Shown: piece after piece, positions 1 through 1,716 of the stretch
Layout of the letters: each line of letters starts with the position of its first letter
How positions within the stretch are numbered: the stretch's first letter is position 1
From: Escherichia coli
Lineage (GTDB): Bacteria > Pseudomonadota > Gammaproteobacteria > Enterobacterales > Enterobacteriaceae
Length of the DNA: 64,000 bases
Assembly (NCBI RefSeq): GCF_003334335.1
Contig: NZ_QOWQ01000018.1
Strand: one strand, 5' to 3'
Notes under the pieces: model-generated
The model's input: the letters and a program-made list of their open reading frames with translations, nothing else
Databases searched by the model: none
Told to the model about the DNA's origin: nothing
Translations under genes and position numbers: made by a program

Positions 1-1716
1 GAACTGGCCTACGCTCTCTGGCCTGGTGATGTGGATGCCGGAAACATTGACGGCAGCATCCATCGCTGGGCAAAAAATGAAGTTATCGACAACGACCGCG
101 AAGACTGGAAGCGTATCTCGGCATCAATGCGCAAACAGCCTGAAGCACTTGGCTATGACCGTCAGACTATTTTTGGCCTTGTCCGTGAACGTCCGATCGA
201 CATTCACAAAGATCCCGTGGCGCTGAACAAATACATCACTGAATACCTGACTACAAAGGGCGTGTTTGAAGATGAAGGAACAAATCAGAGCACAACTAAT
301 ACTCTCCCGTCGCCAGTACCAGAAGCTGATGCAGTGGAAACGGCAATGCCGGACAACGAAAAAACCGAATGCAAAGTGGAAGTCGAACCATCTGTAGAGC
401 GTGAGGGGCCGTTCTACTTCCTCTTCACCGACAAGGATGGCGAAAAATACGGTCGCGCAAACAAACTTTCTGGTCTGGAAAAAGCACTAGCCTTGGGAGC
501 TACGGAAATCACAAAAGAGGAATACTTCGCACGTAAAAACGGCACGTACTCAGGTTCACAACAAAATACTGGTGCATCTGACACGACCGCACAACCAGAG
601 CCGGTAAAAGTTACCGCTGACGAAGTAAACAAAATTATGCAGGCAGCCAATATCAGCCAGCCTGACGCCGATAAGTTGCTTGCTGCCTCTCGCGGAGAAT
701 TTGTTGCAGGGATTAGCGACCCGAATGATCCGAAATGGGTAAAGGGGATTGAAACCCGCGATTCTGTAGACCAGAACCAGCAAGAATCGGAACAGAACGA
801 CCAGAAAGCGGAACAAAACAGCCCAAATGCGTTACAAAACGAGCCAGAAACGAAACAACCTGAACCAGTAGTGCAACAGGAACCGGAAAAGATCTGCACC
901 GCCTGCGGTCAGACCGGCGGCGGCAACTGCCCTGATTGTGGCGCGGTGATGGGCGACGCAACATACCAGGAAACATTCGATGAAGAGTATCAGGTTGAAG
1001 TTCAGGAAGATGATCCGGAGGAAATGGAAGGCGCTGAACATCCACACAAGGAGAATGCTGGCAGCGCTCAGGATCACGCCAGCGATAGTGAAACTGGCGA
1101 GACGGCAGATCCCTTAATTACGGTGAACGGTCATCACGTTATCACATCCACCAGCAGGTTGTGGCACCATCTGATGATTGACCTTGAAACAATGGGCAAA
1201 AATCCTGATGCGCCAATAAACTCTCTGGCCGGTAAGTTTTTTGATCCGGCAACCGGAGAGATGGGGCCAGAATTCAGCAAAACTATCGATCTGGAAACCG
1301 CAGGCGGAGTCATCGATCGGGACACCATTAAGTGGTGGCTGAAACAGTCACGGGAAGCACAATCAGCCATTCTGACCGATGAAATCCCGTTGGATGACGC
1401 ACTGTTGCAATTACGGGAATTTATCGACGAAAACTCCGGTGAATTTTTTGTTCAGGTCTGGGGAAATGGAGCCAACTTCGACAACGTGATTTTACGCCGT
1501 TCATATGAACGGCAGGAGATCCCCTGCCCGTGGCGTTACACCAATGATCGTGATGTAAGAACGATTGTTGCCCTGGGGCTGGTGATGGATTTCGATGCTC
1601 GAAGTGTCATCACATTTGAGGGTGAACGCCATAATGCCCTGCACGATGCGCGTTACCAGGCAAAATACGTTTCAGCTATCTGGCAAAAACTGTTCCCGAA
1701 TCAGGCTGATTTTTAA
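1..1716 (+). CDS. Prophage protein, 5'-partial (reading frame open from base 1), with a C-terminal DnaQ-like DEDDh 3'-5' exonuclease domain, a central CxxC-x7-CxxC zinc ribbon and an acidic/Gln-rich linker
   Basis: Frame 1 is open from position 1 to the stop at 1714-1716. Exo motifs are visible in the translation: MIDLETMG (Exo I), [12 protein letters not shown] (Exo II), [13 protein letters not shown] (Exo III). It sits directly upstream of xis-int as in lambdoid early-left regions. Confidence 0.6.
   Translation, partial: [571 protein letters not shown]

Follow-up and report, generated by a model that had tools for sequence, protein, structure and literature searches.

In Escherichia coli K-12, the exonuclease VIII of the Rac prophage, RecE, is a 5'-3' exonuclease of double-stranded DNA (dsDNA) with a PD-(D/E)XK fold (PDB 3H4R; PF12684), and recT follows its gene. 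The nuclease domain has been assigned to residues 564-866 of the protein (review, PMC11611040). Exonuclease A of phage T4, DexA (PDB 8KEL and 8KEN), is a free-standing enzyme of 227 amino acids (aa) that prefers single-stranded DNA (ssDNA) over dsDNA and whose catalytic residues are D7, D119, H186 and D191 (PMC12153337). Here we describe a prophage gene at the start of a 64,000-nucleotide stretch of E. coli DNA (contig NZ_QOWQ01000018.1; this whole stretch is hereafter called the window). Its product is predicted to combine the non-catalytic scaffold of RecE with a DexA-like DEDDh exonuclease domain.

T4 DexA cleaves either unmodified DNA or DNA carrying 5-hydroxymethylcytosine (5hmC), depending on its oligomeric state, and its W152A variant has lost activity on T4 DNA (Kang et al., 2025; PMC12153337). 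The same study identified EcD, an E. coli homologue of DexA, as a DNA exonuclease that cleaves T4 DNA, but not unmodified dsDNA, and that protects cells against T4. Loss of the Asp that forms the tetramer (D90 in DexA; A78 in EcD) served as the criterion for the form that acts on 5hmC DNA only (PMC12153337). The founder of the Pfam family PF16473, Rv2179c of Mycobacterium tuberculosis, is a stand-alone protein that is an exoribonuclease according to the Pfam description.

YdfE, encoded by a pseudogene of the Qin prophage of K-12, belongs to the same family as the window gene: its residues 1-256 are 97% identical to the product of the complete gene in another E. coli genome (L001), and its gene occupies the same place after dicB-ydfD. 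However, K-12 ydfE (L003:3079-3999) is cut by the insertion sequence IS2E at codon 256, at most four codons from the window start, so that it lacks everything that lies in the window. Literature searches on ydfE, alone or together with Qin and exonuclease, and on Rv2179c together with phage found no functional study.

The prophage exonuclease gene and its catalytic domain

The gene is a single open frame on the + strand, which runs from window base 1 to a TAA stop codon at 1714-1716:

1-1716, + strand: prophage exonuclease gene, 3' part (codons 253-823 and the stop codon), of the YdfE/RecE-scaffold and DEDDh family, PHROG 2082

The complete protein has 823 aa, of which codons 253-823 lie inside the window; the 252 missing codons encode a YdfE-type head. 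The fragment matches phrog_2082, named 'exonuclease' in PHROG, over positions 253-823 with an E-value of 0. A full-length relative of 823 aa (P0001) is 99% identical to the fragment, and in L001, the best relative among complete genomes, whose locus is 95% identical to that of the window, the whole gene lies at 8245-10716. An earlier note on this stretch had stated that the gene is truncated at its 5' end by the window edge; extension upstream through these two relatives confirmed this and supplied the full 823-aa frame with its YdfE-type head. In addition, NCBI contains a protein of 561 aa (P0002), called from a GTG codon at window base 31, whose sequence matches the window product with 100% identity, and the draft contig itself probably also begins near window base 1. 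Residue numbers given below are window numbers, i.e., full-length numbers minus 252, except where full-length numbering is indicated.

An upstream stop or frameshift would have marked the gene as a pseudogene in the eyes of the earlier note, and the window copy contains neither an internal stop nor a frameshift. Open reading frames (ORFs) on the opposite strand, such as that at 414-899 (161 aa), were taken to be shadows of the gene on the + strand, which is strongly supported. The Prokaryotic Genome Annotation Pipeline (PGAP) names the gene 'exonuclease' or '3'-5' exonuclease', and many copies in NCBI are called '3'-5' exoribonuclease'. The window portion, the 3' two-thirds of the gene, belongs to an intact allele; among E. 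coli Qin/Rac-like lambdoid prophages this early gene is very common.

Judged by its sequence and its modelled fold, the C-terminal domain is a DEDDh exonuclease, as had been proposed from three motifs, all of which are present. The Exo I motif DLET, in the context MIDLET, occupies residues 394-397 (nt 1180-1191). NGANFDN is found at residues 489-495 (nt 1465-1485) and contains the catalytic D494 of Exo II, and HNALHDA, at residues 544-550 (nt 1630-1650), provides H544 and D549 of the Exo III pattern H-x4-D. Residues 389-561 match PF16473 (Rv2179c-like 3'-5' exonuclease) over the entire model (positions 1-177 of 177; E 2.2e-60), a score well outside what chance would give. The catalytic D, E, D, H and D are kept in 179-191 of 191 close relatives, with the D of Exo I present in 187 and its E in all 191.

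In the AlphaFold2 (AF2) model, the predicted local distance difference test score (pLDDT) is 89-98 over the domain. When this model was compared with the PDB by Foldseek, DexA was the top match (E 4e-11, 23-25% identity), and RNase T, oligoribonuclease (Orn) and REXO2 came after it; there were 79 matches at E <= 0.001, and the fold is the RNase H-like DEDD fold. The proposal of the earlier note would have failed if profile or structure searches had not placed the domain in the DEDD superfamily, and both kinds of search placed it there. Against AFDB50, the same model retrieved only members of the family and enterobacterial proteins called 'exodeoxyribonuclease VIII'. By sequence, 8KEL and 8KEN were the only solved structures found for the domain. 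D394, D494, H544 and D549 align with DexA D7, D119, H186 and D191, and E396 aligns with the Glu of the D-x-E of DexA.

DexA is thus the best solved relative of the domain in both sequence and structure, and its catalytic residues are identical. The two proteins are nevertheless distant: DexA has extra loops, lacks both a RecE-type scaffold and a zinc ribbon, and has W152 at a position occupied by Thr in the window domain. Rv2179c shares the Pfam family, which the window domain matches over its whole model, but it is not among the top 50 Foldseek matches, whereas DexA is.

After DLET, the window allele reads INSLAGKFF, versus IISIGAIFF in the commonest form. This cluster of substitutions was considered as a sign of decay and rejected, since it involves no indel and 12 of the 191 relatives carry this allele as well; an intermediate, INSIGGKFF, occurs in 42. 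The substitutions represent allelic mosaicism. Identity between window 901-1500 and L001 9901-10500 is 81-88%, and it rises to 99-100% from about position 1500 through xis and int; this jump marks a mosaic boundary of the typical lambdoid kind within the exonuclease domain.

The RecE-type scaffold and nuclease exchange

The full protein is organized as beads on a string, in which a YdfE-type head (full-length residues 1-205), three modules (A, B and C), a zinc ribbon and the DEDDh exonuclease are separated by disordered acidic or Q-rich linkers. This map is based on two AF2 models, one covering residues 1-520 of the L001 protein and the other the window fragment. The confident modules, in full-length numbering, are an alpha/beta unit (1-100), a helical unit (105-205), module A (245-340), module B (388-435) and the DEDDh domain. 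Module C, which consists of two helices (458-482), and the zinc ribbon are less confident, and the segments between modules have a pLDDT below 50. Within the window, the parts are as follows, with the ratio of non-synonymous to synonymous substitution rates (dN/dS) pooled across 69 distinct alleles:

1-270, + strand: helical module A (window aa 1-90; full-length about 245-340), common to RecE 278-350 and many other architectures; pLDDT 92-97; dN/dS 0.13
271-402, + strand: disordered acidic/polar linker 1; pLDDT <50; dN/dS 0.87
403-543, + strand: small beta-hairpin/helix module B (window aa 135-181), not aligned in K-12 RecE by BLASTP; pLDDT 90-94; dN/dS 0.11
613-756, + strand: two-helix module C and a conserved stretch, with near-identical residues in RecE 453-485; helices 206-215 and 223-230 of moderate pLDDT; dN/dS 0.21
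757-888, + strand: Q/N/E-rich disordered linker, identified by composition; pLDDT 40-47
889-984, + strand: zinc ribbon CxxC-x7-CxxC with Cys at window aa 299, 302, 310 and 313; counterpart in RecE 517-531; dN/dS 0.16
985-1164, + strand: acidic disordered linker, at the end of the RecE homology (RecE about 591); pLDDT 33-38; dN/dS 0.74
1165-1683, + strand: DEDDh 3'-5' exonuclease domain (PF16473) with catalytic D394, E396, D494, H544 and D549 (window numbering); dN/dS 0.16

The N-terminal 240 residues or so of the window fragment, in which the earlier note had recognised no motif, are homologous to RecE. Window residues 9-374 match positions 288-603 of the NCBIfam RecE model (NF007259) with an E-value of 5e-84. 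The scores (283 bits for the fragment and 264 bits for the full-length protein) stay far under the equivalog cut-off of 1269 because only the middle of the model is matched, the match being confined to positions 261-603. In BLASTP comparisons with K-12 RecE, family residues 262-625 align with RecE 278-591, and the alignment ends there; the part that comprises the zinc ribbon and the acidic linker aligns in mostly identical residues.

From module A to the acidic linker, the protein is, as far as alignments can tell, homologous to the non-catalytic part of RecE, and a DexA-like DEDDh domain replaces the 5'-3' PD-(D/E)XK nuclease of RecE at about its start. The match to the RecE scaffold makes the protein a RecE paralogue with a swapped nuclease, and not a nuclease fused to an orphan domain. 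The PD-(D/E)XK nuclease of RecE was not found in the window protein, in which BLASTP homology stops at RecE 591 and Pfam gives PF16473 only. A profile search with the alignment of the non-catalytic part against PDB sequences returned only 3H4R and 8KEL, in both cases through C-terminal overhangs of the alignment.

The similarity to RecE of Rac extends to operon position, which is distal in the early-left operon near xis-int, and to the homologous series of module A, module C, zinc ribbon CxxC-x7-CxxC and acidic linker. The differences concern the nuclease, which has a DEDDh 3'-5' fold in the window family, the RecT gene, which does not accompany that family, and module B, which is absent from K-12 RecE. 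In addition, the first 257 residues or so are of the YdfE type, versus the Exonuc_VIII type (PF06630) in RecE. In full-length relatives such as P0001, precomputed Pfam assignments place PF27430 and PF27432, named YdfE_N and YdfE_C in newer Pfam releases, in the head, both upstream of window base 1. In the Pfam search of the full-length protein, PF16473 was the sole significant match; DZR and DUF4072 were not significant.

Structure prediction of the N-terminal region, which the earlier note had suggested, yielded modules A and B, each, like the DEDDh domain, with a pLDDT above 90; module B combines two beta hairpins with helices. The zinc ribbon and the acidic and Q/E-rich character that the earlier note had described were likewise recovered, and the composition of the linkers was computed: residues 254-296 contain 15 Q+N and 11 D+E per 43 residues, and residues 329-388 contain 15 D+E versus 2 K+R per 60 residues. 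The zinc ribbon motif proper spans residues 299-314 (nt 895-942), and its four cysteines are conserved in 190-191 of the 191 relatives. This ribbon is limited to the E. coli-type group, where it occurs with both nuclease types, and more distant members of the family lack it. The zinc ribbon shared by the window gene and RecE also forms the end of a prophage Dam-like DNA methyltransferase (phrog_56; L093:5190-6167, - strand), whose gene adjoins that of the EcD-like protein described below, and the ribbon looks like a mobile mini-module carried by different DNA enzymes.

Across the alleles, the folded modules, the zinc ribbon and the DEDDh domain each have a dN/dS of 0.10-0.16, compared with 0.21-0.25 for module C and the Q-rich linker and 0.74-0.91 for the other three linkers. 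The folded modules are under purifying selection, and the linkers, other than the Q-rich one, evolve nearly neutrally. A length of 823 aa is found in 70 of 72 extracted genes. One relative of 527 aa (P0122) has an internal deletion that joins residue ~366 to residue ~665, with loss of modules B and C, the zinc ribbon and the Exo I motif, which shows that inactivated copies also circulate.

DNA encoding the DEDDh domain is present in 4041 of 5426 complete E. coli genomes (74%), at 7966 places and in up to seven copies per genome. DNA encoding the RecE-type nuclease was found in 1736 complete E. coli genomes, at 1827 places, so that the DEDDh form is more than four times as frequent as RecE in this species. 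The sequence is therefore that of an already catalogued and extremely common prophage gene, and, given also its PHROG family, its PGAP names and the identical NCBI protein, it has no novelty as a sequence.

Among representatives of 1.8 billion proteins, all four combinations of head and nuclease occur:

YdfE head with DEDDh nuclease: the window family
RecE head with RecE nuclease: K-12 RecE
RecE head with DEDDh nuclease: P0124, which matches RecE 1-592 at 88% identity and then the DEDDh domain at 87%, in a Rac-like kilR-ydaE context
YdfE head with RecE-type nuclease: P0140

These natural hybrids show that RecE and the window family exchange parts. As with recT in K-12, a RecT-like gene (phrog_561, E 3.5e-101) follows P0140. 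The gene after the RecE-type nuclease in L005 gave no BLASTP match to K-12 RecT and was assigned by PHROG as a RecT-like annealase. For the DEDDh form, the genes immediately downstream are xis and int in the window, in L001 and in L004. In 80 IMG/VR loci, searched by tblastn over about 7 kb upstream and the downstream flank, neither RecT type nor the RecE nuclease (query, RecE residues 596-866) gave a match in any of the 80. The annealase goes with the nuclease type, and the nuclease is exchanged as a cassette.

Possible functions of the exonuclease

We consider it likely that the protein degrades DNA in the 3'-5' direction as a tethered exonuclease, that it is produced when the prophage is induced, and that its role lies at DNA ends in the lytic cycle and not in RecET-type recombination. 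Its catalytic domain would remove nucleotides from the 3' ends of DNA by two-metal catalysis, with a preference for ssDNA as in DexA, and the RecE-type scaffold and the zinc ribbon would tether it to a partner or a substrate. Gene order suggests that the gene is transcribed after induction from the early leftward operon, together with dicB-ydfD (or kilR) and xis-int; recE in Rac is made in the same way, from its early leftward operon after induction. In lytic growth, the enzyme could then trim DNA ends, remove 3' tails or break down host DNA.

The earlier note had suggested a recombination, anti-restriction or superinfection-related factor. A 3'-5' enzyme would leave 5' overhangs that an annealase cannot use, and no annealase is encoded alongside, which makes RecET-type recombination unlikely and the least likely of these suggested roles. 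The analysis gave no support to an anti-restriction role. A role related to superinfection, which is possible by analogy with EcD (PMC12153337), is opposed by the residue at the specificity position and by the repression expected in a lysogen, as discussed below.

Several points weigh against a DNA exonuclease of the lytic phase. PF16473 is named after an exoribonuclease, so that RNA is a possible substrate; the timing of expression is deduced from gene order only; and EcD, the closest relative that has been tested, acts in defence rather than in lytic development. In addition, no biochemical or genetic data for the window protein were found in the literature searched.

More speculatively, the RecE-type scaffold (a YdfE or Exonuc_VIII head, modules A-C and the zinc ribbon) may serve as a general platform for delivery, on which interchangeable nucleases are brought to one cellular or phage target. 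Under this tentative proposal, the DEDDh version would have a distinct role and would remove 3' DNA tails that are recombinogenic or trigger defence, or would destroy the DNA of competing phages, and the zinc ribbon, which is also found on the Dam-like methyltransferase, would be a shared targeting element. The N-terminal ~560 residues of RecE have been described as being 'of unknown function' (PMC11611040), and the window family shows that they correspond to a conserved modular scaffold under purifying selection. This scaffold is able to carry nucleases of opposite polarity, with or without an annealase, and natural chimeras make its role testable.

Such a common gene prompts one to ask how a 3'-5' exonuclease serves so many prophages, and the work on EcD and DexA provides a testable hypothesis, i.e., defence against phages with modified DNA. 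According to this hypothesis, the protein would be a prophage-borne nuclease of the HREX/EcD type, made in the lysogen, which digests the 5hmC DNA of superinfecting T-even phages and spares unmodified host DNA. The activity of EcD on T4 DNA and the protection it confers (PMC12153337) argue in its favour. The published EcD forward primer leads to a prophage protein of 189 aa with Ala at position 78, as the paper describes, and this EcD-like protein is 37% identical to the window DEDDh domain over 183 residues (E 2e-33). Its gene (L093:6404-6970, - strand) also lies in an E. coli prophage early region, among regulators, the methyltransferase gene at L093:5190-6167 and small phage ORFs. Moreover, the equivalent of DexA D169 is Asp in the window (VMDFD) and in 153 of the 191 relatives, the others having Asn (36) or Gly (2).

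The residues linked to specificity point the other way. At the equivalent of DexA W152, the Trp required for 5hmC recognition, a position that depends on the alignment, the window has Thr (PWRYTNDRD) and the 191 relatives have Tyr (128), Cys (45) or Thr (18), never Trp, although a Trp lies three residues upstream; the EcD-like protein has Trp here, and W152A DexA is inactive on T4 DNA. The window (PLDDAL) and 191 of 191 relatives keep the Asp that corresponds to DexA D90, in contrast to the Ala of EcD. Furthermore, EcD is a stand-alone protein of about 189 aa without the 640-residue scaffold, PADLOC gave no match to a defence family, and the gene lacks its own promoter-like site and is a distal member of the early-left operon, a position that is expected to be repressed in most lysogens. 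We therefore regard a defence function in the lysogen as rather improbable.

It is less probable still that the protein is a 3'-5' exoribonuclease that trims or degrades RNA during prophage development, with small RNAs, mRNA 3' ends, short oligoribonucleotides or nucleotide signals as substrates. The name of PF16473, taken from the exoribonuclease Rv2179c, and that of the many NCBI copies called '3'-5' exoribonuclease' would agree with such an activity, as would the structural neighbours that come after DexA, i.e., RNase T, oligoribonuclease and REXO2. However, the database names stem from the Pfam label and not from an assay, and the best matches in sequence and structure are a DNA exonuclease, DexA, and the EcD-like protein. 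The scaffold is common only to RecE, a DNA enzyme, and the same zinc ribbon is found on a DNA methyltransferase.

Finally, that the gene is a decaying remnant, i.e., a recE gene without its nuclease and RecT partner that persists as an inactive fusion in cryptic prophages, is very improbable: truncated copies exist (K-12 ydfE, interrupted by IS2E at residue 256, and P0122 with its internal deletion) and many carrier prophages are defective (in L001, an internal stop interrupts ydfD, and the annotation marks ydfB as incomplete), but the data on selection and conservation largely refute this idea, in that 70 of 72 genes are full length, the catalytic and zinc-binding residues are conserved, every folded module has a low dN/dS, the DEDDh copies outnumber RecE in E. 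coli, and the window copy is uninterrupted.

Neighbouring genes and other features of the window

The position directly upstream of xis-int, noted earlier, was confirmed by the two genes that come next:

1778-2047, + strand: excisionase gene (phrog_629, E 4.6e-26), first gene downstream and in the same direction; also an excisionase in the L001 annotation
2016-3134, + strand: tyrosine integrase gene (phrog_7244, E 7.7e-68), after which the prophage ends before potC (start 3301)

A similar order is seen in the IMG/VR loci, where the gene is followed in nearly all 80 cases by an ORF of 67-92 aa and then by an integrase-sized ORF of 339-431 aa, in several size classes. Upstream of the gene, dicB-ydfD was found in 75 of these loci and kilR in five. 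A promoter scan of window 1-3400 detected no sigma-70-like site, and all genes in this region have the same direction.

The integrase gene of the window is followed by potC, potD, cobB and nagK of the E. coli chromosome, and the window start is the integrase end of a prophage beside potC. Between the two, at 3135-3303, lies a frame that ends in ...NKFKILKVLHLMNKKVELE and whose stop codon overlaps the start codon of potC; this frame has the appearance of a potB 3' end. Insertion of the prophage seems to have occurred at the potB/potC junction, with the end of potB supplied next to the integrase gene and the other prophage end located outside the window.

An Rfam search over the whole window found nothing in 1-3300. 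Its only two matches, the small RNA SraB (40164-40332, - strand) and the rne 5' untranslated region element (42193-42529, + strand), are ordinary chromosomal features. In the chromosomal part, the region of a DUF3592 gene (5101-5700) is 82-84% identical to strain LZSFT34, versus 96-99% for the flanking genes, and an indel near 6.5 kb shifts the ungapped comparison with that strain.

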